A stretch of DNA of 27,672 nucleotides from an uncultured Planctomycetaceae bacterium (GCA_903958265.1 CAJBSQ010000281.1:1-27672); one strand, 5' to 3'; shown: positions 4,817 to 23,865, numbered from the stretch's first letter. Notes: generated by a model from the sequence alone, not told the origin. Numbers and translations: made by a program.

Positions 4817-5959
4817 ATGCCACCCTCCCACCCGCCTCGTCGCATCCGCACCGCCATCGTCGGCCTCGGCTTCGGCGCCGAGTTCATCCCGATCCACCAG
4901 CGGCATCCGCACGTGGAACTGGTCGCGATCTGCCAGAGGTCGAAGGAGAAACTTGACCAGGTCGGCGACGCCACCGGTGTGGAGCGGAGGTCGACGAGCT
5001 ACGCCGACATCCTCCGGGACAAGGATATCGATGCCGTCCACATCAACTCGCCGATCCCCGACCACGCGGCGATGTCGATCGCGGCCCTCGAGGCCGGCAA
5101 GCACGTGATGTGCACGGTGCCGATGGCGACCTCCGTTGAGGAGTGCCGCAGGATCGTCGAGCTCTCGGAAAAAACTGGGCTCAAGTACATGATGGCCGAG
5201 ACGGTCGTCTACGCCCGTGAGTTCCTGTTCATCAAGCAGATGGCCGATCGCGGTGAACTCGGCACGATCCAGTTCGTGCAGGCCAGCCACCAGCAGGACA
5301 TGGACGGCTGGCCGAACTACTGGCCGGGCCTGCCGCCGATGCACTACGCCACCCACTGCGTAGGGCCCTGCCTGGCGCTCGAGCGGAAGGACGCCGAGGA
5401 AGTGAGCTGCTTCGGCTCCGGACGGATCCGCGACGAGCTTGTCGGGAAGTACGGCTCGCCGTTCGCCATCGAGAGTGCCCACGTGAAGCTCAAGAACAGC
5501 GCCGTGGTCGCCCGCGTGATCCGCTCGCTCTTCGACACGGCGAGACAGTACCGCGAGAGCTTCGACGTCTACGGGTCGAAGCGGAGCTTCGAGTGGCAGC
5601 TCTGCGAAGGTGAAGAGCCAGTGATCCACACGGCAAAGGTTCCGGAGCCCGAGATTCCCCAGCGGGTGTCGGTGCCGGACTTCGCGCACCTGCTACCCGA
5701 GCCCATTCAGCCCTTCACGACCGGCGGCGTGTACGACGCCGACGACCATCAACACCTCTCGTTCACGCAGGGGGGCGGCCACGGCGGCAGCCATCCGCAC
5801 CTCGTGCACGAGTTTGTGACCGCGCTCGTCGAGGGCCGCGACCCCTATCCCAACGCCCGGCAGAGCGCCAACTGGACCTGCACCGGCCTCCTCGCCCACG
5901 ATTCAGCCATGCAGGGGGGGGCGATCCTGAAACTCCCCGAGTGGTCGTTCTCGTCCTAG
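4817..5959 (+). CDS. Gfo/Idh/MocA family oxidoreductase
   Basis: 380 aa. Rossmann start IRTAIVGLGFG, DIDAVHINSPIPDH, ALEAGKHVMCTVP (at the usual EKP position), MHYATHC, C-terminal GGGHGGSH. Confidence 0.85.
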   Translation: MPPSHPPRRIRTAIVGLGFGAEFIPIHQRHPHVELVAICQRSKEKLDQVGDATGVERRSTSYADILRDKDIDAVHINSPIPDHAAMSIAALEAGKHVMCTVPMATSVEECRRIVELSEKTGLKYMMAETVVYAREFLFIKQMADRGELGTIQFVQASHQQDMDGWPNYWPGLPPMHYATHCVGPCLALERKDAEEVSCFGSGRIRDELVGKYGSPFAIESAHVKLKNSAVVARVIRSLFDTARQYRESFDVYGSKRSFEWQLCEGEEPVIHTAKVPEPEIPQRVSVPDFAHLLPEPIQPFTTGGVYDADDHQHLSFTQGGGHGGSHPHLVHEFVTALVEGRDPYPNARQSANWTCTGLLAHDSAMQGGAILKLPEWSFSS

Positions 5960-10563: not shown

Positions 10564-11163
10564 TCAGCGGAACGTCGGCAGAGCGACACCCCGGGCCTTC
10601 GCATGGACGACAAGGGCCTCCTCGTACCGCGCGGCGACCGCGCGGCGGTCTGCCGCCGCCTTGCGGGCGGCCTCGTCGGGCGGCTTGGCATTCGGATCGT
10701 TTCCACCGCCCCGCCGCCCGGGCCCACGTTCCCGCGGCATCCATGGCGGATCGTCCGAATCAGCCTGAGGGTTGAGGGCGATCATCAGGGCGCGGAGCGC
10801 CACGAGCCGCTCGATCTCTGCATCGAGCAGCAGCGGTTTGTCGGCGGCCGGCGCGGTGAAGTAGCGGTCGATGGCCTCCTGCCGACGTCGCCGCCAGTCC
10901 TCGCCTACCGCCCGCCAGAGCTGCCCCAGTTCGTCACGGGGCATGCGGTCGACGTTGGCCACTAGCTGGCGGATCGTCTGCTTGGCGGGCGGGCCGCCCA
11001 GATCCAGCAGGCCCGTGGCGATGGCCACCGTCTCGGGCACCCGGGTGGCCTTCGGCCAGAACCAGAACACCGCGACCGCCACGAGCAGGGCCAGCACGGC
11101 AGCGATGACGAGGGCGACGGTGCGGTTCGACGACGGCGTGGGCTCGGGAACGGAACGGGCCAT
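10564..11163 (-). CDS. Hypothetical membrane-anchored protein
   Basis: ATG 11163 follows GAGGT and lies 10 nt after the upstream stop. One TM helix (VALVIAAVLALLVAVAVFWFW) followed by a helical charged domain. No family recognised. Confidence 0.7.
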   Translation of the reverse strand: MARSVPEPTPSSNRTVALVIAAVLALLVAVAVFWFWPKATRVPETVAIATGLLDLGGPPAKQTIRQLVANVDRMPRDELGQLWRAVGEDWRRRRQEAIDRYFTAPAADKPLLLDAEIERLVALRALMIALNPQADSDDPPWMPRERGPGRRGGGNDPNAKPPDEAARKAAADRRAVAARYEEALVVHAKARGVALPTFR

Positions 11164-11173
11164 GGCAGCGACC

Positions 11174-12205
11174 TCAGGAGGGCATCTCAACCACCGCCTT
11201 GATCACGCCGCTCGCTGGGTCGAGCAGTCTGGGAAACTCCGCCGGCAGCTCTGCAAACGGAAGCCGGTGCGTGATCCAGGGCCGGGTGTCGATCGTACCA
11301 TCCTCGATCAGGCCGATGATCCTCGAAAAATCCCGCGACAGGGCGTTGCGGCTGGCCAGGATCGTGAGTTCTCGGCGGTGCATCGCCGCGGCATGGGGAA
11401 ACCGCACCTCACCCTGGGTGATCCCAACATAGACGAGCCGGCCCCCGAAACTGCAGACGTCCAGGGCCGCCGCCATGCTCGCAGCGCTGCCCGTGGCATC
11501 CACCACAAGCTCGCACATCCTGCCGTCGGTGAGCTGCCCCACGGCCTCACTGTCGGCCGGCGTGCCGGTGGCCAGCACGGTGTCGGCCACGCCCATGGCC
11601 GAGCGGACGAAGTCGAGTCGCGGCTGCGACTTGTCCATGACGATCACCCGGGCCCCGGAGACCTTGGCGAACTCCAGCGCCGACAGCCCGATCGGCCCTG
11701 CCCCGATGATGAGCACCGTCTCGCCGGGCTGCGGCGCGCCGCGGTCGATCGCGTGGCAGCCGATCGCGAGCGTCTCAACCAGGGCGTTCTGCTCGGCCGT
11801 GAGCCGTGGCGACCGATGGAGCTTGCGGGCGGGCAGCGTGAAGAGCGGCCGGAGGCCGCCGTCGCAGTGCACGCCGAGCGTGTGGTGGTGGGCGCAGCAG
11901 TTGGTCAGTCCCCGAACGCACGAGTGGCACCGCTGGCAGTTGATGTAGGGCTCCACGCAGCAGCGGTCGCCGGTCTTCACGTTCGCCACGCCCGACCCGA
12001 CGGCCACCACCTCGACACCCAGTTCGTGCCCTGGGATCCGCGGGTAGCTGAAGAAGGGCATGGTGCCGAGGTAGCCGCCGTAGTCGGTACCGCAGATGCC
12101 CACGGCATGAACGCGGACGAGGGCCTCGCCGGGGCCGGGCGCGCCGGGCTCGGGCATGTCGATGAATCGGAACGCCTGCGGGCGCTCGAGCAGTAGGGCC
12201 TGCAT
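11174..12205 (-). CDS. Zn-dependent sugar-acid dehydrogenase, YjjN/LgoD (L-galactonate 5-dehydrogenase)-like
   Basis: GICGTD, MPFFSYPRIPGHE (E. coli YjjN as I recall: QPFFSYPRVLGHE), structural Zn CxxCxxCx7C, GAGPIG, acidic residue after beta-2 (NAD preference), SRNA. RBS AAGGAGG. Confidence 0.85.
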   Translation of the reverse strand: MQALLLERPQAFRFIDMPEPGAPGPGEALVRVHAVGICGTDYGGYLGTMPFFSYPRIPGHELGVEVVAVGSGVANVKTGDRCCVEPYINCQRCHSCVRGLTNCCAHHHTLGVHCDGGLRPLFTLPARKLHRSPRLTAEQNALVETLAIGCHAIDRGAPQPGETVLIIGAGPIGLSALEFAKVSGARVIVMDKSQPRLDFVRSAMGVADTVLATGTPADSEAVGQLTDGRMCELVVDATGSAASMAAALDVCSFGGRLVYVGITQGEVRFPHAAAMHRRELTILASRNALSRDFSRIIGLIEDGTIDTRPWITHRLPFAELPAEFPRLLDPASGVIKAVVEMPS

Positions 12206-12238
12206 GAAACCTCCTTCGCCGCGGTCACCGCGGTCGCG

Positions 12239-13069
12239 TCACGTGAGTCCGTAGAACCTGGTGGCGGTGCCGCCGTGGATCTGGGCCTGCTCGTCGGCAG
12301 AGAGCCGCCCGAAGTAGTCGCGGGGAATCGCCGCCACGTCGGCATACTCGCCGGCGAGCAGGCAGACCGGCCAGTCGCTGCCGACCATCAGCCGCGCCGG
12401 CCCGAAGGCCTCGAGCACCACGTCGAGGTAGGGCGTGAAGTCGTCCGGCTTCCAGCCGCGCCGCGCCGCCTCGGTCACCATCCCCGACACCTTGCAGCAG
12501 ACGTTGTCGTGGCGGGCAATCGCCCGCAGGTCCCGCTCCCAGCCCTCGATCTCGCCGGCTGCGATCCGTGGCTTCGCCAGGTGATCGACCACGAACGGCT
12601 GCTCGGGGACGAGCCCCACGAGTTCGATGGCGGCCGGCAGTTGGTCGGGATAGAGGAGCAGGTCGTAGGTCAGGCCGTGCTGGTGGAGCTCCCGCAGCCC
12701 CCGGCCGAAATCACTGCCGAGCACGAACCGCGGGTCGGGCTCGTCCTGCACGACATGCCGCACGCCGACAAACGTCGGATTCGCGGCGAGCGCATGGAGA
12801 TCGTCACCGACACGATCGCTCCGCAGGTCGACCCAGCCAACCACGCCCTTCACGAGCGGGTGGGCCTGTGCGAGCTTCAACAGCCAGTGGCTCTCCGCCA
12901 CGCTCTGTCGGGCCTGAACGGCGACCGAGCCGTGGATACCCTCGGCGGCAAGCAGGGGTGCGAGGTCCTCGGGCAGGTAGTCGCGGGCGAGCCGTTCCAT
13001 GCCCGGGCCGATCCAGGGGTACTCCGCCGCCGAGTAGTTCCAGAAGTGCTGGTGGGAGTCGATGCGCAT
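12239..13069 (-). CDS. Amidohydrolase-family sugar lactonase (COG3618; L-fucono-/L-galactono-1,5-lactonase-like)
   Basis: True start is ATG 13069 (MRIDSHQHFW), 5 nt after the AKR stop. Motifs HQH, GVRHVVQ, VVDHLAKP, CKVSG, GSDWPVC. 276 aa. Confidence 0.85.
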   Translation of the reverse strand: MRIDSHQHFWNYSAAEYPWIGPGMERLARDYLPEDLAPLLAAEGIHGSVAVQARQSVAESHWLLKLAQAHPLVKGVVGWVDLRSDRVGDDLHALAANPTFVGVRHVVQDEPDPRFVLGSDFGRGLRELHQHGLTYDLLLYPDQLPAAIELVGLVPEQPFVVDHLAKPRIAAGEIEGWERDLRAIARHDNVCCKVSGMVTEAARRGWKPDDFTPYLDVVLEAFGPARLMVGSDWPVCLLAGEYADVAAIPRDYFGRLSADEQAQIHGGTATRFYGLT

Positions 13070-13074
13070 GGCGG

Positions 13075-14007
13075 TCAGTTGTTCTCCGGCAGGCCTTCGC
13101 TGTGGCCGACGTTCTTCACGGCCGCGAAGATCGCCTGCACGTCGCGGGCGAGCTCGGTGTCGATTGGCTCGGCGGCCCAGCTCACCCAGTGGCGAATGTT
13201 CGCGGGGTTCGCACTCCCCGCCACTGTGGTGGCGATGTCGGGATTGGCGATCGAAAACTGCAGGGCGAGCTTCGCGATCGACGACCCGCGGGCCCGGCAG
13301 AGTTCGGCCGCCCGCCGCGCCGCCGCCTTCACGTCCTCGGGCTCCTTGAGCCAGGCGGGGAGGGGAGCGTCGGTGAGGAGCCGGGCGCTGAAGGGCCCCG
13401 CATTCATCACACCGATGCCTCGCGACGTCAGCCACGGAATCGTCTCGTCGGCAAATCGCGTGTTCTGGAGGGTGTACTGGTTGTAGTTGAGCACGCAGTC
13501 GACGTCGGCCTGCTCGCAGATGAAGCGAAAGATCTTCTGCGGGTAGCCGCTGATGCCGATGAACCGCACCTTCCCTTGATCGCGGGCCTTCCGGAGCGCC
13601 GGGAGTGTCTCGTCGATGATCTGCTGCATCGGCACGAACTCGATGTCGTGGCAGAGCACGATGTCGAGGTGGTCGGTGCCAAGCCGGTGGAGCGACACAT
13701 CCACGCTCTCGGACACCCGCTGCGCCGAGAAGTCGAAGTGGGAAAGGTCGTAGCGGCCAAGTTTCGTGCAGAGGAGATAGTCGTCTCGTGGCACCGACTC
13801 GAGCGCGAGGCCGAGCAGCACCTCGCTCATCCCGCGGCCGTAGAACGGGCTCGTGTCGATCAGGTTCAAGCCGCCCGCGAGAGCCTCTCGCACGCTCGCC
13901 AGCGCCTCGTCGAGGGTCACCGACCGGAACTCCTGCCCGAGCGAACTCGCCCCGAACGAGAGGATCGGCACCTCGAGGCCGGTTGTGCCGAGTGGTCTGG
14001 TTTTCAT
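13075..14007 (-). CDS. Aldo/keto reductase, L-galactose dehydrogenase / D-threo-aldose 1-dehydrogenase-like
   Basis: Start MKTRPLGTTG at 14007. SFGASSLG, IDTSPFYG, TKLGRY, FDFSAQRV, LCHDIEF and ETLPAL match, from memory, plant and Bacteroides L-galactose dehydrogenases (FDFSAERV, HCHDIEF). Confidence 0.85.
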   Translation of the reverse strand: MKTRPLGTTGLEVPILSFGASSLGQEFRSVTLDEALASVREALAGGLNLIDTSPFYGRGMSEVLLGLALESVPRDDYLLCTKLGRYDLSHFDFSAQRVSESVDVSLHRLGTDHLDIVLCHDIEFVPMQQIIDETLPALRKARDQGKVRFIGISGYPQKIFRFICEQADVDCVLNYNQYTLQNTRFADETIPWLTSRGIGVMNAGPFSARLLTDAPLPAWLKEPEDVKAAARRAAELCRARGSSIAKLALQFSIANPDIATTVAGSANPANIRHWVSWAAEPIDTELARDVQAIFAAVKNVGHSEGLPENN

Positions 14008-14017
14008 GTCGTCGCTC

Positions 14018-14473
14018 TCAGGCAAACGTTCGACAGCCGAGGGAGAGCAACAGATTCGCCCACGGCTGCGTGTCGGCCGTCTGGATCGTGAGCACGTGGT
14101 CGTCGGAGGCGACGGCCGCGTAGAAATCCCACTTCACGATCGGCACCAGTGTGCAGGGCGACGTGGCCGCGGCAAGGATGCGGCGATACTCGGCCCACAC
14201 CGGCGGGTCGCCCGGCGTGGCGGTGGCGTAGGAGTCGGCTCGATCGACCCCCATCGTGAAGACCTCGTCGACCTGCACGGCGGCGAGCACCGCCCCGAAG
14301 ACCTGTGCCACCGTCGGCACGCCGGGAACCAGTTGCAGCGAGACGAGCTCCGCCCGCGGACCCCGCTTCGTGAGGGCGGGGTAATTGCCGTCGGCGATCA
14401 GCACCTTCGCATGGTGCCCCGACCGGGCCAGCACGCGGAGAATCTCGGGATGCAGCAGGGGCCCATTGAGCAT
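14018..14473 (-). CDS. RbsD/FucU family sugar mutarotase / pyranase
   Basis: ATG 14473 follows GAGGAG. MLNGPLLHPEILRVLARSGHH...LIADGNYP and DFY...IQTADTQPWANLLL fit the FucU/RbsD pattern (GH, DAxFP-like, FY, T..(Y/W)xN). 151 aa. Confidence 0.8.
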   Translation of the reverse strand: MLNGPLLHPEILRVLARSGHHAKVLIADGNYPALTKRGPRAELVSLQLVPGVPTVAQVFGAVLAAVQVDEVFTMGVDRADSYATATPGDPPVWAEYRRILAAATSPCTLVPIVKWDFYAAVASDDHVLTIQTADTQPWANLLLSLGCRTFA

Positions 14474-14490
14474 CGTTGTATCTCCTCGCG

Positions 14491-15306
14491 TCAGGCGACC
14501 AGGTGCCGCCGCAGGCTGGCGATCGTCCGGCCCGCCGCCTCCGACGGCGTCGGCCACGGATATACCTCGGCGGACAGCCAGCCTTCATAGCCGATCATCC
14601 GCAGGGCCGCCACGACGGCCGCCGGGTCGGTGTGGCCGAAGCCCATCGCCCGGCGGTTGGAGTCGGCCCAGTGGACGTGGCCCACCCGGCGGCCGCAGGC
14701 GGCGAGCCCGCCGGCGACATCGTCCTCCTCGATGTTCATATGAAACAGGTCGCAGAGCAGTTTCACCGTCTCGAGACCATGGGCCTCGAGGAAGGCCGCG
14801 GCCTCCGCCTGACGGTTCCAGAGGTCGGTCTCGTACCGGTTGAGCGGCTCGTAGAGGAGAGGCTGGCCACGCCGGGCAGCCTGGTCGCCCAGTTCGCCGA
14901 GCGCGTCGGCGAGCATGACGAGAGCCGCCTCCCGCGGCACCTCGCTGGTCGTCCGGCCCTGCATCGAACCGATGATGGCCGGCGCCCCCAGGTCGCCCGC
15001 CACCTCGATGATCGACGCGATGAACTCCCGCGCCCTCCGCCGGACGGCCTCGTCGGGATGCACCAGGTGCAGGCCGTGCTTGACGAATCCGGCGCCTGTC
15101 CCGATGGCGGCCAGCGCCAGGCCATGGGCCGCGAGCAGGGGATTCACGGTCCGCACCGCCACGTCGTCGGCCCCTGCGGGAAACAGCTCGACGCCGTCGA
15201 AGCCGGCGTCGGCCGCGGCCCGGCAGCCCGCCTCCAGCCCGCCGTGAAACACGAACGGCCCGCGACCTGCCTCCGGCACTAGACAGATCGTGATGGCTGA
15301 TTTCAA
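14491..15306 (-). CDS. Sugar-keto-acid epimerase, xylose-isomerase-like TIM barrel, IolO (5-keto-L-gluconate epimerase) / ketose 3-epimerase-like
   Basis: Probable TTG start at 15306 (GAGGGG upstream; GTG 15309 is an alternative). AIGTG...LVHPDEAVRRRA, EPLNRYET, DLFHMNIEE, HVHWADSNR, GFGH, SAEV. From memory this is close to T. maritima IolO (AIGTG...LTHPNDEIRKKA, EPLNRYET, DTFHMNIEE, HVADSNR). Confidence 0.8.
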   Translation of the reverse strand: MKSAITICLVPEAGRGPFVFHGGLEAGCRAAADAGFDGVELFPAGADDVAVRTVNPLLAAHGLALAAIGTGAGFVKHGLHLVHPDEAVRRRAREFIASIIEVAGDLGAPAIIGSMQGRTTSEVPREAALVMLADALGELGDQAARRGQPLLYEPLNRYETDLWNRQAEAAAFLEAHGLETVKLLCDLFHMNIEEDDVAGGLAACGRRVGHVHWADSNRRAMGFGHTDPAAVVAALRMIGYEGWLSAEVYPWPTPSEAAGRTIASLRRHLVA

Positions 15307-15323
15307 CACAACCCCCTCGTGCA

Positions 15324-15358
15324 CCGTTGCCTCGAAGCCGCCGGCGCGGCAACGGCTT
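15324..15358 (-). other. Intercistronic hairpin(s) between uxaE and the IolO-like gene
   Basis: 8-bp inverted repeat CCGTTGCC/GGCAACGG (15324-15331 / 15348-15355), with an alternative 6-bp pairing AAGCCG/CGGCTT (15335-15340 / 15353-15358). No U-tract. Confidence 0.3.
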
Positions 15359-15364
15359 TCTCGC

Positions 15365-16621
15365 TCAGGATGCAACGCTCCCGAACAGCGGTTTCAGGTG
15401 GCGATCGTAGATGTTTTCGGTGACCTGCGTCGCCACCACCTCGCGGTTGGCCACGAGCAGGTCGGTGTACCGACTCCCCTGCTTGGCCGCCACCTTGAAC
15501 GACACGTGCACCAGCTGCCGCATGTGGGGATTGAAGGCGGGGTTCGAGGGGACATGACGCAGGGCGGCCGCCAGCTGCGACCCTCTCCACGATGCCACCG
15601 TGGCTGGCGACGGCAGTTGGGCCTTGTCGATGTCGATCACCGTGGCGTAGGGTGCGCAGAACTCCTCGACGTGGTCGAAGGCATAGGCATAGATCTCCCT
15701 GGCGAGCGCGAGGCCGTCGCCGCCCGCCTCGGCCAGGCCGATCATCTCCTCGAGCCACGTCGTGCCGGCTGTCTTGAGATGCAGGCCCGCCCCGGTTCGC
15801 TGCACGATCCGGCGGATGAGCGGGTAGAGCGAGAACTTGTCACTGCCGCTGTGCACCGAAAGCTTGAGGTTGTTCGGTAGGCCGTAGCGGTGGGCTGCGT
15901 AGGCCAGCACCTCCACATCATCAGAAAACTCCTGCTCGAAGCCGGCGAGGTCACCGACGTAGTCGACACCCTTATTGAATCGGCCGGTGAACTTGGGCGC
16001 GATCGTCTGTAGGGGCACACCCTCGTCGGCGAGCAGGGCGAGGATCACGAGCAGCTCCGGCGGCGTTTGGGCCACGTCGGTCTCGTCCATGCTCACCTCA
16101 ATCGCAGCTGCATCCCCCCGGCGGCTGCGAATGTGCCGGAAAATCTCTCCAGCCTCGCGGCAGGCCAGGAGATAGCGGCGGGCGACCGTCCCGGAGACCT
16201 CGGCCGACAGTGGCAGCGGCACGGCGATGCCGGGGATCGTCAGCGGCGCGGTGAGTTCGGGATGGTTCCCCAGAAAGGCGGTGATGTCGGCATCAGCCGC
16301 CGGCGTGCCGATCGAATCGGCGACGTCGATCGTGAAGAAGTCGCTCGAATCGAGGAACCGGTCGACCGTCTCGAGGCGGATGTGGTCGGCATCGACGAAC
16401 CAGGGGTGAGGCCACTTTCGGGCCGCCACCGCGGCGGCGGCCGCGGCCCGCACGCTCGCCGGCTCGCTGCCGATGAAGGTGTGTTCGCGGTTCGACTTGT
16501 TCCACACCGGGGAGACGACGATGCCCTCCTCGGCCAGCCGTTCAAAAGCGGCGAGCTGCGCCTGGGCCTGATGGGCGAACCGGTCACCAACGCCAAACGT
16601 GAATCGCGGGAGCGTGAGCAT
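15365..16621 (-). CDS. uxaE: D-tagaturonate/D-fructuronate epimerase UxaE
   Basis: Start MLTLPRFTFGVGDRF at 16621. Motifs FVDADH, FFTIDV, IEVSMDET, APKFTGRFNKGVDY, KLSVHSGSDKFS, HLKTAGTTWLEE. 418 aa. Confidence 0.9.
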   Translation of the reverse strand: MLTLPRFTFGVGDRFAHQAQAQLAAFERLAEEGIVVSPVWNKSNREHTFIGSEPASVRAAAAAAVAARKWPHPWFVDADHIRLETVDRFLDSSDFFTIDVADSIGTPAADADITAFLGNHPELTAPLTIPGIAVPLPLSAEVSGTVARRYLLACREAGEIFRHIRSRRGDAAAIEVSMDETDVAQTPPELLVILALLADEGVPLQTIAPKFTGRFNKGVDYVGDLAGFEQEFSDDVEVLAYAAHRYGLPNNLKLSVHSGSDKFSLYPLIRRIVQRTGAGLHLKTAGTTWLEEMIGLAEAGGDGLALAREIYAYAFDHVEEFCAPYATVIDIDKAQLPSPATVASWRGSQLAAALRHVPSNPAFNPHMRQLVHVSFKVAAKQGSRYTDLLVANREVVATQVTENIYDRHLKPLFGSVAS

Positions 16622-16751: not shown

Positions 16752-17300
16752 TCACCCGTCCAGGGGATTCGCTGGCGTAGGCAGGATCAGTTGCCAGAAC
16801 TCGAGGTCGAGCCAGCGGCCGAACTTGAAGCCGGCCTCGCGGACGGTGCCGCAGCAGCGAAAGCCGAGCGAACCATGCAGGGCCACGCTGGCGACGTTCG
16901 TGGCATCGATTCCGGCGATCAGCATGTGGATATCCCGCTGCCTGGCCTCGGCGACGATCGCCTGGAGGAGTTGCCGGCCGACGCCCTCGCCGCGAAATCG
17001 CTCGTCCACGTAGACGGAGTGCTCGACGGAGTACTTGTAGGCCGCCCGCGGCCGAAACGGCCCCCAGGTCGCGAAGCCGGCCAGCACGCCCGGCTCCCAT
17101 TCGATCCCGATCACCGGGATGCCGCTGCGCTCGCGGTCGGCGAACCACTCCCGCATCACCTCCTCCGTCCGTGGCTCGTATTCGTAGAGCGCGGTCGTGT
17201 GGAGAATCGCGTCGTTGTAGATCGACCGAATCGCCGGAAGCTGACTCGCCGTGCAGGCGATCACCTCGCGGCGGGGAGGCGCGGACTTCTTGCGAGGCAT
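16752..17300 (-). CDS. GNAT N-acetyltransferase, phosphinothricin / methionine-sulfoximine acetyltransferase (Pat/YncA) family
   Basis: ATG 17300 lies 7 nt after the actP stop. IYNDAI, AYKYSVEHSVYV, RGEGVG (acetyl-CoA loop), NVASVALH..LGF, GFKFGRWLD. Confidence 0.88.
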   Translation of the reverse strand: MPRKKSAPPRREVIACTASQLPAIRSIYNDAILHTTALYEYEPRTEEVMREWFADRERSGIPVIGIEWEPGVLAGFATWGPFRPRAAYKYSVEHSVYVDERFRGEGVGRQLLQAIVAEARQRDIHMLIAGIDATNVASVALHGSLGFRCCGTVREAGFKFGRWLDLEFWQLILPTPANPLDG

Positions 17301-17307
17301 CGGCGGG

Positions 17308-19050
17308 CTAGCGGCGAGGGGAGGGGGCGGGCGTGAGCAACGACACGACGACGAGCACCAAAAAACCGAGTGGGATCGTGACGAGCCCCGGCTGGCTGAA
17401 GGGGGTGAGGGCCATCTCGCGCGGGAGTCCGTAGACCTTTTCAAACGTGTCGGCCGACAGCAGGATCCAGGCCAACGACGACAGCATACCTGCCGAGACG
17501 GCCGCCACGATGCCCTGCCGGGTGGTCCGCGGCCAGAACAGCAGCATCACCAGTGACGGCAGGTTGGCACTGGCTGCGATGTTGAAGGCCCAGCCCACGA
17601 GAAAGCTGACATTGAAGTTGCGGAACAGGATGCCCAGGGCCATCGCCACGATCCCCAGCCCCACCGCGGCCAACTTCCCGCAGCGAATCTTCTCGTGATC
17701 GGTCATCTGGACGCCGCACACGTTCTCCACGAGGTCGTGGGCCACCGCACCGCTGCCGGCCATGATCAGGCCGCTGACCGTACCCAGCACGGTGGTAAAG
17801 GCGATCGCCGAGATGATCGCAAACAGGGTGTTGCTGAAGGTCTTGGCGAGCAGCGGGGCCGCCATGTTGGTGTCGGTCGGATCGAGGGCACCGGACGTCA
17901 TCGCTCCCAGGCCGAGATACAGGGTGAGCACGTAGAACACGCCGATCGCCGCGATGCCCACCACGGTGCTCTTCCGGGCGGCCGCGGCGTCCTTGACGGT
18001 GTAGTAGCGGATCAGGATGTGGGGCAGCGACGCCGTGCCGCAAAACAGCGCGAGCATCAGGCTCGCGAAGTCGAGTCGGTCGGCCAGTTTCCCGGAGGTG
18101 AGCCCCTTGAAAGAGCCGCCGGGCGTGAGCAGATCGGTCCCCCGCCGCTCGACGGGCGTGAACGTCGTATGGGCTCCGTCGGCGTCGACATGCTTCTTCG
18201 CCGCCCAGGTCACGATCGTCGAGTCTTCCAGCGCCGAGAGGTACTCCAGCGGCCCGAGCGGTCCGGTGGAGCGGGCGTCGCCGAACCGTTCCGGCAACCG
18301 GAGGATCGTGCCCACCGGCCGCAGGTCATGATCCCGCGACTGCGTCACGCCGTCCACCAGCACCGTGCCGTCGGGCCGCACGGTCCTCACCTGTGGAGCC
18401 AGGTTTTCCGTGCCGGTGCGGCTCGCATTAACGGCCAGGCCGCGGCCCAGGATCAGCACCGTCAGCACGCCGCAGAAAAAGACGAGCAGCGACCCCTTGA
18501 TGAACTGCACCCAGGTGGTCGACACCATGCCGGCAGTGACCACGATCAGCGTCACCGTCACTCCGACCAGGATCACGCCGGCCTCGTGCGGCAGGCCGAG
18601 GAGTGGCTTGATCAGCGAGCCCGCCCCCACCATCTGCGGGATCAGGTAGAAGATGCTGACGACAAGGGTCGAGATCGCCACGGCCAGCTTGATGCCACGG
18701 CTGTTGAACCGGCTGTCGAGGGCGTCGGCAAACGTGAACTTTCCCAGCGCCTTGATCGGCTCGGCGATCACAAAGAGCGCCACCACCCAGCCGGCGAGGA
18801 AGCCGATCGAGTAGAGGAATCCGTCGTAGCCGGAGAAGGCGATCATCCCGCAGATGCCGAGAAACGACGCCGCGGAGAGATAGTCGCCGGCGAAGGCGAT
18901 CCCGTTGACGAACCAGTGAATCTGGCCGTGGGCGGCGTAGTAGCCGGCCGCCGACTGCCCCTTGCGGCCCAGGAAAAACGAGAGGCCAAGCACACCGAGC
19001 ACGAACGTGGCGAAGATGGCGACGGCGACGAGCGAGGTCTGGTGCAGCAT
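17308..19050 (-). CDS. actP: Sodium:solute symporter, cation/acetate symporter ActP family
   Basis: NGIAFAGDYLSAASFLGI, GKFTFAD, YLIPQMVGAG, TTWVQFIKG, GTASLPHILIRYYTV, AFTTVLGTVSGL, ASANLP. Paired with an upstream DUF485 gene as in yjcH-actP. Confidence 0.85.
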   Translation of the reverse strand: MLHQTSLVAVAIFATFVLGVLGLSFFLGRKGQSAAGYYAAHGQIHWFVNGIAFAGDYLSAASFLGICGMIAFSGYDGFLYSIGFLAGWVVALFVIAEPIKALGKFTFADALDSRFNSRGIKLAVAISTLVVSIFYLIPQMVGAGSLIKPLLGLPHEAGVILVGVTVTLIVVTAGMVSTTWVQFIKGSLLVFFCGVLTVLILGRGLAVNASRTGTENLAPQVRTVRPDGTVLVDGVTQSRDHDLRPVGTILRLPERFGDARSTGPLGPLEYLSALEDSTIVTWAAKKHVDADGAHTTFTPVERRGTDLLTPGGSFKGLTSGKLADRLDFASLMLALFCGTASLPHILIRYYTVKDAAAARKSTVVGIAAIGVFYVLTLYLGLGAMTSGALDPTDTNMAAPLLAKTFSNTLFAIISAIAFTTVLGTVSGLIMAGSGAVAHDLVENVCGVQMTDHEKIRCGKLAAVGLGIVAMALGILFRNFNVSFLVGWAFNIAASANLPSLVMLLFWPRTTRQGIVAAVSAGMLSSLAWILLSADTFEKVYGLPREMALTPFSQPGLVTIPLGFLVLVVVSLLTPAPSPRR

Positions 19051-19071: not shown

Positions 19072-19326
19072 TCAGCGACCCGACCGGAGAAGCATGTAGG
19101 TGACCGCCAGCACGAATGCGGATGCGATCAGCCCCATGCCATACACGATCGCAAGGTTCACGCCGCCAAAAGGCCGCAGGGCGAGCAGGTCCGGCCGCAC
19201 GAGCACCAGCGCCATGAAGCCAGCGTACAGCAGCACGTAGACGCCGAAGAGGCACAGCCCCAGTGGGCTCGCCGCTGCGTCACCGCCCGCCTGAGGCGGC
19301 CCGTCGCGTTTGCCTGATGCCGCCAT
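19072..19326 (-). CDS. DUF485 (YjcH-like) small two-TM membrane protein
   Basis: LGLCLFGVYVLLYAGFMAL...GGVNLAIVYGMGLI, directly upstream of actP. GTG 19353 is an alternative start. Confidence 0.8.
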   Translation of the reverse strand: MAASGKRDGPPQAGGDAAASPLGLCLFGVYVLLYAGFMALVLVRPDLLALRPFGGVNLAIVYGMGLIASAFVLAVTYMLLRSGR

Positions 19327-19366
19327 GCCGGTCCCCACTGGCTCACTCGTCACCGCCCAACCGGGG

Positions 19367-19614: not shown

Positions 19615-22600
19615 TCACCGCCCTGCGGCCGGCACGTCGGCGACAGGATAGAGGAACTCAGGTGAGGCGACGTCGCCAGCGGGGCGACGCCCGGGAGCCT
19701 GTGGGCCGCAGAGTTCCGCCTGCATCGGCGAGACGTAGCCGCGGAGCCTGTCCACCACGGCGGGATGCTCGGCGGCGACGTCGGTCGTCTCGCCGAGATC
19801 GGCTTCGAGATCGTACAGCCGTGGCGATTCCATCGAGGCCTCGGCCACGACGGCCCCCTTCCCCATCCCCGCACCCTGCGAGGCGATGGCCAGCTTCCAG
19901 CGGCCAGCACGCACCGCCTCCAGCGTCGTGCCCTTGAAGTAATAGTGAACCGCCCGGGCAGGCTCGCGGCTGGTCCCAAGGAGGAGGCCGGAAATGTCGC
20001 GGCCGTCGATCACGGGCTCGCGGGGCATGTCGCCGCCCGCCAGTGACACGAATGTCGGAACCAGATCGATCGTACCGGCCATCGTGCCGCACTCGGTGCC
20101 CGCCGCGATTCGGCCCGGCCACCAGGCGACCGTCGGGACCCGCACGCCCCCTTCCCAGGTGCTGCCCTTACCGCCCCGCAGCGGCCCGGAGGAGCCGCCG
20201 TCCGCCCCCTTCACCACCCACGGCCCGTTATCGCTGGTGAAAATCACGAGCGTGTCGTCGTCGAGCCCCTCGTCGCAAAGCGTGTCGAGGATTTTTCCAA
20301 CGCTCCAGTCGACCTCCTCGACCCAGTCGCCGAACCGGCCATTGTCGCTCTTTCCCCGAAACCGCTCACTGGGGAAGATCGGCACGTGAACGGCGGTATG
20401 CGGTACGTAGAGAAAAAACGGCTTCTCCTTCGACCCCCGAATGAAGGCCACGGCCTCGTCAGTGCACCGTTCGACGATCCCCCGCTGTGCCTCGTCGGTG
20501 AGCAGTTCCACCACGCGGTCATCGCAGAGCAGTGGCACGACCTCCTCTCCCGTCACCGCGCTCCTCTTCTGCATGTCGTTGGAGTAGGGAATGCCGACAT
20601 AGTGATCGAAGCCCTGGCGACAGGGAAGAAACGCGGGCTGATCGCCGAGGTGCCACTTCCCGAAGCAGGCGGTGGCATAGCCGAGACTTCTCAGCCGCTC
20701 AGCCGCCGTGATCTCGGCCGGATTGAGCCCCTGCTTTCCGGCCGGAAAGAAGACCCACGGCACAGACACCCGCGGCCCGTAGCAGCCGGTGAGCAGCTGC
20801 GCCCGCGACACCGAACACGCCGGCGCCGCATAGAAACTCGTGAGCTTCATTCCCTCGCGGGCCATGCGGTCGAGGTTCGGTGTTCGCTGTTTTGTGGCCC
20901 CGAACGGTCCGATGTCGCCGTAACCGAGGTCGTCGATGAACACGACGACGATGTTCGGAGGGCGCGGCGCCGGGCCCCGGCCCTGCGGGTCGTCGAACCG
21001 CCGCTCGGCCGAGGCGAGCGTGGCCTCGAGCGTGCGGCGGGTGGCCGCGACGGCCGGATCAGCAGCAAGGTCGTGCCGCTCGCCCGGGTCGCTTGCCAGC
21101 CTGAAGACCTGGGTCCTCTCCGCCCTGGGATAGTGAATCAGCTTCCACTCGGGAGTCACGACCGCCCGCTGGACCTCCTTGTAGGCGAGCAAGAGCGACT
21201 CCCGGCCCGTGGACCGCTCGCCGCGAAGCACGGGCCCGAGGCTCTGCCCCTCGCTGGCGGCGGGGGCCGCGACACCGGCGAGTTCACCGAGCGTCGCCGT
21301 CACGTCGAAGAGATACGCGAGCGCGTCGCTGCGGCGGCCGGCGGGCACCCCCGGCCCCGCGAGCACGACCGGGGCCCGCATCGAGTGTTCGTAGAGGTTT
21401 TGCTTGCCGAGCAGGCCGTGGCTGCCGAGCGCGAGACCCTGGTCGGCAGCGAAGAGCACGACCGTGTCGGTGAGCCTGCCCTTCTTCTCGAGCGCGAGGA
21501 GTACACGGCGGATCCGGTCATCCATCCCCTCGACGAGCGCGTAGTAGTCGGCCAGTTCCTTCGAGATCACATCCTGAGAGAGCGGCCGTGGCAGGAGTCT
21601 TTCGTCGCGGACCGAAAGCGCGCCGTTGTCGAACGGATGCTCGGGCAGGAAGTTCTCCGGGGCCGGAGGCTCACGGCCGTCGTACCGGCGGCGAAACTCC
21701 TGCAGCGGCTGCCGGGGGTCGTGCGGCGCGGTGAACGCGCACCAGGCAAAAAACGGCTCGTCACCGAGGCTCTCGATGAACGCCTCGGCCGCGGCGCCGA
21801 CGACCTCCGATGAGTGGCGGTCGGTCGCGGCGTCCGCCACGGCCGCGGCATGCCCACGAAATGACACTGTCGGCAGGCCGGTATGGCCGTGCATCCCACC
21901 GAGGAACACTTGGCTCCCCTCGGCGAAGCACCGGAGGAGCGACTTCTGGCCGTTATGCCACTTGCCGGTGGCGAACGTGCGGTAGCCGGCCCGCTCGAAG
22001 GTCTCGGGCCAGGTATCGCAGCCTTTGAGTTGCTCGTGGACGTGGAAGAGCGACCGGCCGGAGAGCAGCATCGCCCGGCTCGGCACGCAGACCGCTCCCT
22101 GCATCGCCCCCATGCAGGAGACGCGATCCAGCACCGTCCCCCGGGCGACGAGGGCGTCGATCGCGGGCGTGCGGATGTGCGGATTGCCCAGCGCGTGGAT
22201 GGCGTCGGCCCGCATGTCGTCGGCAAGTAGCACGAGGACGCTCGGGCGACGCGACGCCGCAGCCGCCGTCTCGCTGACCGCCCCACGCCTCACGGCGTCG
22301 GGCGTGGAAGGGCCTTCGGAGACGGCCGCGGCGTCGGCGAAGGGCAGCGGCCATGCGGGGTCGGGCACGTGCTCGCGGTCGAGGATCTCCGTCATCCGTT
22401 TCACGACCTGCGGATGCCGCGCGGCGACGTTCGTGGTCTCCGCCGGATCGGCGACAAGATCGTAGAGCTCGACCGGGCCCGGGTCGCCAGGTCGCTTCGG
22501 ACCGGCGGCGCGGCGAATCGCCTTCCAGCGACCATCCACCGCCGCCTGCCAGGCGGCCTCCGTGAGTTCGCGGTAGAGCATCCGCTCCTCCGGCGCGGCG

Positions 22601-23820
22601 GCCTCGCCGAGCAGGGCCGGCTTCAGGCTCGTACCGTCGAGCCCGGATGGAATCTGTGGAGCGAGGCCCGCAAGATCGAGGAGCGTCGGCAGCCAGTCCT
22701 CGAACCCGGTCGGGGAGGCGATCGTGCGCCCAGCCGGGATCTTTCCCGGCCAGACGGCGACCGTCGGCACGCGAAGCCCACCCTCGAAGGGTGAGCCCTT
22801 CCAATCCCGCAGGGCACCGTTGCTCTTCAGCCGTGCCGTGTCGAGGCCGCCGGTGCCGGGCCGGGTGCCGCCGTTGTCGCTCGAGAACACGAAGATCGTG
22901 TCGTCGGCGAGCCCAAGCTCGTCGAGCAGCTTCACGAGCCGGCCCACCTCGCGGTCCATCCGCGTGATCATCGCCGCGTAGGTCGCCAGGGGATGCCGGC
23001 AGGGCACGTAGCCCCGGCCGCCGAGGTAGGGCTCCTCGTCGCCGAACTGCTTCCGGTACTCGGCCAGCGATGGCTCGTCGGTCGGCACCTGGAGCGCGAG
23101 GTGCGGCACCGTGGTCGGCACGTAGAGGAAAAAAGGCCGGCCCGCGTTCGCCCGCACGAATGCCAGCTGCTGCTCGGCGATCAGGTCTGCGGAGTAGGTT
23201 TTCCCCGAGAACGGTGCGAAGTCGCTGGCGGCCGGGGGCGGCTGGTCTGGGATCCTCCCGCCGCGTTGAACCTCGGGGTTGTCGACGGCGATCCGCTCGC
23301 GGTCGCTCCAGAGGTGCCGTGGATAGTAGGTATGCGCCTCGCGCTGACAGTTGTAGCCGAAGAACCGCTCGAACCCGCAGGCAAGCGGGTCCGAGGCACT
23401 GCCCGGTGGCCCAAGCCCCCACTTGCCGAAGCCGCCGGTCGCATAGCCCGCGTCACGGAGGATCGTGGCGAGCGTCACGGTGCCGGCCGGCAGCGGCGTT
23501 TGCCCCTCGGGCTTGGCCTCGCGGTTCGAGCGGACGGCCGCGTGCCCCGGGTGCCTGCCCGTCAAGAGCACGCAGCGGCTCGGAGCACAGACGGCGCTCC
23601 CCGCCCAGTGCCGCGAGAGCCGAGTGCCCCGGGCGAAGAGGGTGTCGATATTCGGTGTCTGGATGTCCTTCGAGCCGAGGCAGGAGAGATCGCCCGTGCC
23701 AAGGTCGTCGCACAGGAAGAACACGATGTTGGGCCGGCGAGTCTCCGCGGCCGCGACCGGTGCCGCCGCGGTCATGGCCACGGCCACCGCCAGCCCCGCA
23801 ATCAGGAACCACGCTCGCAT
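19615..23820 (-). CDS. Secreted triple-domain formylglycine-dependent sulfatase polyprotein (~1401 aa)
   Basis: ATG 23820 follows GGAGG and starts a signal peptide. Three complete sulfatase units, each with a DD motif, a Cys motif, GKW and D(N/Q)G: CAPSR 23575-23589, CVPSR 22075-22089, CSVSR 20803-20817. Confidence 0.88.
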   Translation of the reverse strand: MRAWFLIAGLAVAVAMTAAAPVAAAETRRPNIVFFLCDDLGTGDLSCLGSKDIQTPNIDTLFARGTRLSRHWAGSAVCAPSRCVLLTGRHPGHAAVRSNREAKPEGQTPLPAGTVTLATILRDAGYATGGFGKWGLGPPGSASDPLACGFERFFGYNCQREAHTYYPRHLWSDRERIAVDNPEVQRGGRIPDQPPPAASDFAPFSGKTYSADLIAEQQLAFVRANAGRPFFLYVPTTVPHLALQVPTDEPSLAEYRKQFGDEEPYLGGRGYVPCRHPLATYAAMITRMDREVGRLVKLLDELGLADDTIFVFSSDNGGTRPGTGGLDTARLKSNGALRDWKGSPFEGGLRVPTVAVWPGKIPAGRTIASPTGFEDWLPTLLDLAGLAPQIPSGLDGTSLKPALLGEAAAPEERMLYRELTEAAWQAAVDGRWKAIRRAAGPKRPGDPGPVELYDLVADPAETTNVAARHPQVVKRMTEILDREHVPDPAWPLPFADAAAVSEGPSTPDAVRRGAVSETAAAASRRPSVLVLLADDMRADAIHALGNPHIRTPAIDALVARGTVLDRVSCMGAMQGAVCVPSRAMLLSGRSLFHVHEQLKGCDTWPETFERAGYRTFATGKWHNGQKSLLRCFAEGSQVFLGGMHGHTGLPTVSFRGHAAAVADAATDRHSSEVVGAAAEAFIESLGDEPFFAWCAFTAPHDPRQPLQEFRRRYDGREPPAPENFLPEHPFDNGALSVRDERLLPRPLSQDVISKELADYYALVEGMDDRIRRVLLALEKKGRLTDTVVLFAADQGLALGSHGLLGKQNLYEHSMRAPVVLAGPGVPAGRRSDALAYLFDVTATLGELAGVAAPAASEGQSLGPVLRGERSTGRESLLLAYKEVQRAVVTPEWKLIHYPRAERTQVFRLASDPGERHDLAADPAVAATRRTLEATLASAERRFDDPQGRGPAPRPPNIVVVFIDDLGYGDIGPFGATKQRTPNLDRMAREGMKLTSFYAAPACSVSRAQLLTGCYGPRVSVPWVFFPAGKQGLNPAEITAAERLRSLGYATACFGKWHLGDQPAFLPCRQGFDHYVGIPYSNDMQKRSAVTGEEVVPLLCDDRVVELLTDEAQRGIVERCTDEAVAFIRGSKEKPFFLYVPHTAVHVPIFPSERFRGKSDNGRFGDWVEEVDWSVGKILDTLCDEGLDDDTLVIFTSDNGPWVVKGADGGSSGPLRGGKGSTWEGGVRVPTVAWWPGRIAAGTECGTMAGTIDLVPTFVSLAGGDMPREPVIDGRDISGLLLGTSREPARAVHYYFKGTTLEAVRAGRWKLAIASQGAGMGKGAVVAEASMESPRLYDLEADLGETTDVAAEHPAVVDRLRGYVSPMQAELCGPQAPGRRPAGDVASPEFLYPVADVPAAGR

Positions 23821-23865
23821 CGTCACCTCCCTCGACACCATCGATTCTCGCCACGAACCCAAGCG

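Follow-up and report, generated by a model that had tools for sequence, protein, structure and literature searches.

Which sugar would a lake planctomycete consume with an operon that sets a sugar-oxidation module beside two keto-uronate epimerases? The question is raised by a 27,672-nt stretch of DNA (GCA_903958265.1, CAJBSQ010000281.1:1-27672; hereafter the window), which carries six co-oriented minus-strand genes at positions 11174-16621. The window corresponds to contig C281 (G+C ~70%), the longest in the metagenome-assembled genome (MAG; G000) of an uncultured Planctomycetaceae bacterium from a lake, an assembly of 3.59 Mb in 817 contigs that is 88% complete. We propose, with a probability of roughly 0.7, that these genes would encode an oxidative, non-phosphorylating route of L-galactose catabolism with its exit through a UxaE-family epimerase. 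This reading rests on the families to which the proteins belong, on catalytic residues and a gene clustering that are conserved, and on the operon's presence in RNA libraries.

From the upstream end, the operon encodes a UxaE-family tagaturonate/fructuronate epimerase of a divergent, short subfamily (15365-16621, 418 aa, PF16257); a keto-uronate 4-epimerase that resembles IolO and LguG and has a xylose-isomerase-like TIM barrel (14491-15306, NF041099 and a match to TM0416); an RbsD/FucU-family mutarotase/pyranase (14018-14473, PF05025); an aldo-keto reductase (AKR) placed by its solved relatives in the L-galactose 1-dehydrogenase clade (13075-14007); a COG3618 amidohydrolase-2 lactonase (12239-13069, matching the NCBIfam L-fucono-1,5-lactonase model and structure 4dlf); and an LgoD/YjjN-like Zn-dependent medium-chain dehydrogenase (11174-12205, reciprocal match of Escherichia coli LgoD). 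The intervening gaps are 58, 17, 10, 5 and 33 nt. An earlier note on this DNA had described just such a six-gene operon; our listing of open reading frames (ORFs) returns the same coordinates and spacings, and Pfam and NCBIfam agree with all six of the gene families it named. A 2-nt indel at position 15312 in related metatranscriptome contigs falls inside the 58-nt gap and therefore supports a start of the IolO-like gene at or below 15306. A promoter scan returned no promoter-like site, and a terminator scan returned one weak terminator-like site, inside the small gene downstream of the operon.

The AKR provides the link to L-galactose. L-galactose dehydrogenases take all five top places among its solved relatives: 9w6y comes first (E 6e-87), and enzymes of plants follow (E 1e-78 to 1e-69). 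The N-terminus of 9w6y is that published for LguA of Luteolibacter sp. LG18 except for one residue, and the AKR and 9w6y (LguA) share roughly 46% identity, counted from the alignment. In L-galactose dehydrogenase, the catalytic residues are D51, Y56, K82 and H122, and the sugar is bound by S21, D123 and W223 (PMC13661200); in our alignment the entire D51/Y56/K82/H122 tetrad is kept, as are S21, D123 and W223. A further residue of LguA, M212, governs specificity, with Met favouring L-galactose and the M212Q substitution favouring L-glucose (PMC13661200). In the window AKR, Ala at residue 208 replaces M212, and Ala likewise stands in all 80 of the related AKRs surveyed below, within the invariant local motif PFSARLL. 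One locus of the same order (L028; G031:C105, 2208-3194) holds the sole related AKR with Met at the position of LguA M212, in the motif PLSMGLL. The cluster at L028 is without an IolO-like gene and the examined PFSARLL clusters of the order all have one, in a sample that is far too small to establish a pattern.

By sequence search, the Zn dehydrogenase and LgoD, the L-galactonate 5-dehydrogenase of E. coli, are reciprocal best matches. The window enzyme shares 37% identity with LgoD (222 bits), compared with 31% with RspB (152 bits) and 25% with IdnD (75 bits), and it is the best hit when LgoD is searched against the whole MAG (233 bits, the runner-up reaching 74 bits). Its gene adjoins that of the lactonase, in the same cluster as the AKR. 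The best solved relative of the lactonase, over its full length, is 4dlf (BmulJ_04915, E 8e-62), and the protein scores 295 bits on the NCBIfam L-fucono-1,5-lactonase model, for which the cut-off is 400 bits. The mutarotase scores 97 bits on PF05025 and matched FucU and RbsD structures weakly; its gene accompanies the IolO-like gene in almost all loci. The roles proposed earlier for the AKR and the YjjN-like enzyme are supported by these comparisons, the former being nearest to L-galactose dehydrogenases including LguA and the latter reciprocal with LgoD.

We then considered the two epimerases. The UxaE-like protein scores 164.6 bits on PF16257 (cut-off 27.1), and its best solved relatives are the Cohnella UxaE structures 6ilb and 6ila (E 5e-30); the sole structure match outside UxaE is weak (E 7e-5) and its chain is titled only 'isomerase'. 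Catalysis in Cohnella UxaE relies on Glu126 and Asp159, according to a review of its mechanism. These residues align to a conserved E and D of the window protein, within 'RE' and 'DADH' motifs, so that the enzyme named UxaE in the earlier note does keep both catalytic residues. The IolO-like protein scores 211 bits on the NCBIfam IolO model NF041099 (cut-off 300) and has Thermotoga maritima TM0416 as its best solved relative (E 1e-36), with metal-binding and catalytic motifs aligned. In the window, its gene adjoins the RbsD/FucU gene.

From these assignments, we infer every step of the following pathway by homology and context. The mutarotase would supply the right anomer of the incoming L-sugar, the AKR would oxidize L-galactose at C1 to L-galactono-1,5-lactone, and the COG3618 lactonase would open this product to L-galactonate. 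The LgoD-like Zn dehydrogenase would then oxidize C5, converting L-galactonate to D-tagaturonate and possibly L-gluconate to 5-keto-L-gluconate, after which the UxaE-family enzyme would turn D-tagaturonate into D-fructuronate. The predicted reaction of the IolO-like enzyme, from 5-keto-L-gluconate to D-tagaturonate, likely admits a C4-epimeric substrate, for example L-glucose by way of L-gluconate, and L-glucose is plausible as a second substrate on this analysis. The most likely continuation is reduction of fructuronate to D-mannonate by a reductase of SDR (short-chain dehydrogenase/reductase) type, for which contig C202 holds a candidate; D-mannonate would next be converted to 2-keto-3-deoxygluconate (KDG) by a dehydratase for which there is no candidate gene, and KDG would be phosphorylated by a PfkB-family candidate on contig C318.

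Much of this chemistry has a precedent. The dual L-glucose/L-galactose pathway of Luteolibacter sp. LG18 comprises lguA, lguD, lguG, lguC, lguB, lguH and lguE (Yachida et al., J Bacteriol 2025, PMC12632266). There, the AKR LguA together with LguD converts L-glucose to 5-keto-L-gluconate and L-galactose to D-tagaturonate; the IolO-like LguG, needed for L-glucose only, converts 5-keto-L-gluconate to D-tagaturonate; altronate and KDG are formed by LguC and LguB; LguH is the kinase that acts on KDG; and the resulting 2-keto-3-deoxy-6-phosphogluconate (KDPG) is cleaved by LguE (PMC12632266). LguA prefers L-galactose over L-glucose and is inactive on L-fucose and D-arabinose (PMC12632266). The operon resembles this system in the best structure match of its AKR, in its Zn-type aldonate 5-dehydrogenase and in an IolO-like, here putative, 4-epimerase encoded beside an RbsD-family gene. 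An AraC-type regulator, represented in LG18 by LguR, also adjoins nine related loci, and both hosts belong to the Planctomycetes-Verrucomicrobia-Chlamydiae (PVC) group. The two systems differ in that LG18 uses the tagaturonate reductase LguC and the altronate dehydratase LguB, whereas the operon here holds a UxaE-family epimerase. In LG18, moreover, the clusters encode no lactonase and lguG is kept apart from the main one; here, a single operon unites all genes. The AKR specificity residue is M212 in LG18 and Ala in the window. The earlier note had mentioned a dual pathway in Luteolibacter; it exists, and it makes the proposed chemistry credible (PMC12632266). The operon is less novel than that note had suggested: the publication on the dual pathway had itself pointed to Planctomycetota members of the LguA, LguD and LguG clades, and it describes no UxaE variant (PMC12632266).

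Three other systems share parts with the operon. The L-galactose pathway of Bacteroides (Phocaeicola) vulgatus, encoded by Bvu0219/0220/0222 (Hobbs et al. 2014, as cited in PMC12632266 and PMC13661200), has the same core as here, in which three enzymes (an AKR, a COG3618 lactonase and a Zn dehydrogenase) lead to D-tagaturonate. The B. vulgatus route reportedly continues through UxaB and UxaA, with no IolO-like or UxaE gene in its cluster. In T. maritima, UxaE is said to act in a hexuronate route and IolO in an inositol route, in work attributed to Rodionova et al. in 2012/2013. The operon shares with Thermotoga the same two epimerase families and the order 5-keto-L-gluconate to D-tagaturonate to D-fructuronate; it differs in that the Thermotoga inputs are galacturonate and myo-inositol, followed by UxuB and UxuA, while here an L-aldose oxidation module provides the input and UxuA and UxuB were not found. 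The LG18 paper also cites the IolO of T. maritima (PMC12632266). Finally, the LgoD/LgoT/LgoR system of E. coli resembles the operon through LgoD, the closest of the E. coli proteins compared (37%, reciprocal), and differs in starting at L-galactonate rather than L-galactose and in continuing through UxaB and UxaA. A literature search for UxaE together with L-galactose returned reviews only, and this arrangement was not found described.

A uxaE-like gene is present in 21 of the 24 sampled genomes of the genus. Within the order, three further families (represented by genomes G027, G028 and G031) have the same gene families clustered in differing orders, G031 being without the IolO-like gene. The grouping of the six genes is far beyond chance; the same six families co-localize, shuffled, in other families of the order and in 13 of 38 well-flanked loci from two phyla. 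The UxaE of G027, G028 and G031 is in each case only ~30% identical to that of the window, and the one that was scanned, from G027, is canonical (381 bits on PF16257). Since a paralogue thus stands in an otherwise conserved context, this argues that the canonical and divergent types of UxaE do the same job.

To extend the comparison, we scanned species-representative genomes with an AKR alignment, which yielded at least 596 relatives; the best 80 were used to define loci L058-L137. These best 80 are 75-89% identical, derive from lake, soil and groundwater MAGs, and are labelled Pirellulales/Planctomycetota and Verrucomicrobiota, although some record titles are clearly mislabelled (Klebsiella pneumoniae, Chitinophaga pinensis and Candidatus Kuenenia look wrong). 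Of the 38 loci in which the AKR is flanked on both sides by 6 kb or more, all six genes occur in 13, a UxaE-like gene in 21, and an IolO-like gene in 18, nearly always with the mutarotase. When all flanking ORFs of 89 loci were clustered, the recurrent additions were an AraC-type regulator (9), an SDR (5) and a Gfo/Idh/MocA protein (4); no further family was consistently linked to the six genes, the rest being housekeeping neighbours. AKRs carrying the two phylum labels are 75-89% identical, as against ~46% to Luteolibacter LguA. As they are far closer to each other than to LguA, these sequences suggest that the cluster has spread laterally among PVC bacteria.

The operon also appears to be transcribed in lakes. 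Lake-water DNA runs contain up to 89% of its sampled words, and from the Zn dehydrogenase through uxaE it is tiled by contigs of three metatranscriptomic libraries that match the window at 96-99% identity. All five gene junctions are crossed by single contigs (e.g. 11922-13647, 13651-14087, 14073-15515 and 15176-16469), and in two lake libraries the upstream GNAT gene and the small downstream ORF at 10564-11163 are almost uncovered. Contigs are no proof of single transcripts, DNA may be present in RNA libraries, and divergence between related strains can make holes in coverage; with these caveats, the coverage fits a six-gene transcription unit expressed in situ.

We weighed three alternatives to a route dedicated to L-galactose. 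The first extends that route rather than excluding it: with a promiscuous AKR, lactonase and Zn dehydrogenase, the operon would be a broader funnel for L-aldohexoses, carrying L-galactose, L-glucose, L-gulose and L-allose all to fructuronate. By our own stereochemical reasoning, a C3 epimerase (UxaE) and a C4 epimerase (the IolO-like enzyme) would together interconvert the four 5-keto-hexonates of one C2 configuration. In favour of this reading, both LguA and LguD accept the two C4 epimers (PMC12632266), an IolO-like gene lies inside the cluster in the 18 of 38 well-flanked loci counted above, and all 80 related AKRs share Ala at the LguA M212 position. L-gulose and L-allose, however, are very rare in nature, and LguA has not been reported to act on either; we regard so wide a funnel as unlikely.

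Considerably less probable is an operon for the oxidation of L-fucose (6-deoxy-L-galactose) or D-arabinose in which the remaining genes are unrelated. The lactonase has L-fucono-1,5-lactonase as its best family and structure match, and the mutarotase is of the FucU/RbsD type. The enzymes that would follow, fuconate dehydratase and a 2-keto-3-deoxy-fuconate dehydrogenase or hydrolase, are found neither in the operon nor among the recurrent families of the 89 loci. The AKR is nearest to L-galactose dehydrogenases, among which LguA is inactive on both L-fucose and D-arabinose, and an LgoD-like dehydrogenase and two keto-uronate epimerases would have no role on a 6-deoxy sugar or a pentose.

A Thermotoga-type inositol pathway, in which the Zn enzyme would be the scyllo-inosose 3-dehydrogenase IolM acting before IolO and UxaE, is very improbable: the adjacency of the IolO-like and UxaE genes, the 176 bits of the Zn dehydrogenase on the IolM model and a Gfo/Idh/MocA gene at 4817-5959 speak for it, but that score is far under the 450-bit cut-off and under the PRK10083 score, the reciprocal best match is LgoD, no IolN-type hydrolase was matched among the operon proteins in Pfam or NCBIfam, three of the enzymes (AKR, lactonase and mutarotase) require an aldose, and the Gfo/Idh/MocA gene, which is on the opposite strand, accompanies the cluster in the closest relatives alone.

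Several observations nonetheless weigh against the proposed L-galactose route. Every equivalog-level NCBIfam score is under its cut-off, as would be expected from a distant lineage, and the closest characterized relative of the lactonase is a fuconolactonase. The UxaE-like protein of the window is only ~30% identical to the canonical UxaE of its relatives. LguD (BCU78126), LguG (BCU76179) and Bvu0219-0222 were compared by description, the sequence comparison having used LgoD, RspB, IdnD and solved structures. The same side of the balance receives what we found of the steps beyond fructuronate. UxuA (PF03786), UxuB/UxaB of the Mannitol_dh type (PF08125, Mannitol_dh_C), UxaA-type proteins (GD_AH) and Eda were not found in the MAG, whose assembly is incomplete (88%), hence their absence is not proven. 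Among 31 genomes of the genus, UxuA occurs in 6, the Mannitol_dh type in 0, the UxaA type in 4 and Eda in 13. From other families, five good-quality genomes with a UxaE-family gene (cluster genes were shown in four of these genomes) gave no Mannitol_dh-type protein and no clear UxuA, the single UxuA match scoring 28.8 bits (cut-off 23.7) over about one-third of the profile; Eda is present in all five. In addition, the two downstream candidates described next are core genes of the genus, present also where no UxaE was found.

The first of these candidates is the SDR, a possible fructuronate reductase (G000:C202:927-1706) encoded between gnd and zwf (L141, C202:2-3323). Its best match among the models is to 'D-mannonate oxidoreductase', a subfamily on which it scores 239 bits (cut-off 281), and it is 62% identical to an SDR of G028 and 48% identical to one of G029, both encoded directly after cluster genes; in G028, the SDR comes right after the lactonase. 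Over most of the genus, this SDR is 84-97% conserved, more than the operon proteins are. The second candidate is a PfkB protein whose best model matches are KDG kinases (G000:C318:4123-5280, L044). G029 has the gene order uxaE, iolO-like, fucU, SDR, PfkB, and its PfkB is 48% identical to that of C318. The C318 PfkB is kept in 21 of the 31 genus genomes, some of them near-complete and without a detected Eda (PF01081), which hints at a non-canonical aldolase or another substrate of the kinase. Because both are core genes and a test for co-occurrence with UxaE failed, the SDR and PfkB are not specific to the pathway.

No mannonate dehydratase candidate emerged from searches of the MAG, the genus or the eda-kdgK neighbourhood of G027. 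Enolase-superfamily members of the MAG, considered as ManD, resemble dipeptide epimerases or racemases, and a second gene resembling dihydrodipicolinate synthase sits with transporters and shows no clear link. IlvD/Edd is single-copy in most genus genomes. ManD-like enolases of 11 of the 31 genus genomes all score below the cut-off, and those of G019, G023 and G020, the three whose neighbourhoods were examined, belong to other sugar-acid modules and were rejected as the dehydratase sought. A TIM-barrel gene beside eda-kdgK in G027, considered as a UxuA analogue, has no orthologue in the MAG at E < 1e-10. In passing, we noted a conserved module of Eda, an enolase-superfamily dehydratase, a major facilitator superfamily (MFS) transporter and an SMP-30 lactonase in G019:C78 (L155, 4508-8688) and G023:C118 (L156), which is probably another oxidative sugar pathway of the genus.

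The earlier note had proposed a check for uxuB, uxuA, kdgK and eda, and had made the pathway depend on a route that consumes fructuronate. Of the four genes, kdgK has a possible counterpart in the KDG-kinase-like PfkB on C318, while UxuA, a UxuB-type protein and Eda were not found in the MAG. The consuming route is not clearly in evidence, since UxuA, UxuB/UxaB-type and UxaA-type genes were found neither in the MAG nor in most relatives. Because the same gap occurs in near-complete relatives (G020 and G041, 97-98% complete), these data suggest a non-canonical downstream route. We are doubtful of a more sweeping version, in which Planctomycetota and Verrucomicrobiota of fresh water and soil would have a general funnel in common: a promiscuous AKR (with Ala in place of M212), lactonase and Zn dehydrogenase would supply the two epimerases in succession and bring L-galactose, L-glucose and possibly L-gulose or L-allose to D-fructuronate, which would be consumed without UxuA, UxuB, UxaA or UxaB; if true, it would imply an undiscovered mannonate dehydratase or another fate of fructuronate.

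The genes around the operon bear on the likely source of its substrate. Upstream on the same strand lie a multi-sulfatase gene encoding three sulfatase domains (19615-23862, minus) and another encoding two sulfatase domains and a BD-FAE/alpha-beta-hydrolase esterase, which runs off the contig end (23866-27672, minus). Because two multi-sulfatase genes stand upstream on the same strand, the L-galactose is probably released from sulfated glycans. Sulfatase and formylglycine-generating-enzyme genes adjoin the cluster in G027 too. Between the sulfatases and uxaE are genes for a DUF485 protein (19072-19353, minus; DUF485 match), its partner, an ActP/MctC-like sodium:solute symporter (17308-19050, minus; 419 bits on NCBIfam MctC and 402 bits on ActP, both below cut-off), and a GNAT acetyltransferase (16752-17300, minus). 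The symporter is 55% identical to one in G027 (L052:5600-7558) that adjoins a gene for a xylose-isomerase-like TIM barrel and is divergent from eda-kdgK. It is a candidate transporter and could carry a sugar acid rather than acetate. In the two lake metatranscriptome libraries, the GNAT gene is nearly uncovered though its neighbours on either side are covered.

Downstream, 10 nt beyond the Zn dehydrogenase, a small membrane-anchored protein is encoded by a possible seventh gene (10564-11163, minus). It has no Pfam match, and homologues of 66-74% identity are placed likewise in no loci but the nearest ones, L058, L059 and L065. Convergent with the operon are genes for a Gfo/Idh/MocA oxidoreductase (4817-5959, plus) and, after it, a 1476-aa protein that combines ThuA, DUF7133 and cytochrome c domains (extending to 10412, plus). 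This pair adjoins the cluster in the closest relatives, and in G029 the large protein does so as well.

The operon recombines three published enzyme modules; it is built of known parts and is not a new kind of system. Its value is tempered accordingly, as every enzyme family and reaction in it has been published. Glycans of algae, plants and animals contain L-galactose. To our knowledge, bacterial catabolism of L-galactose has been established in few organisms, and that of L-glucose in two. With no recognizable UxuA or UxuB, the findings point to a missing enzyme that could be sought, and the conserved IolO-like gene raises the question of which natural substrate needs C4 epimerization, L-glucose being thought nearly absent in nature. 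Among uncultured PVC bacteria of lakes and soils, it is common for one operon to link the module for L-galactose oxidation with both keto-uronate epimerases, which suggests that the use of L-hexoses is a regular trait of polysaccharide degraders in this group.

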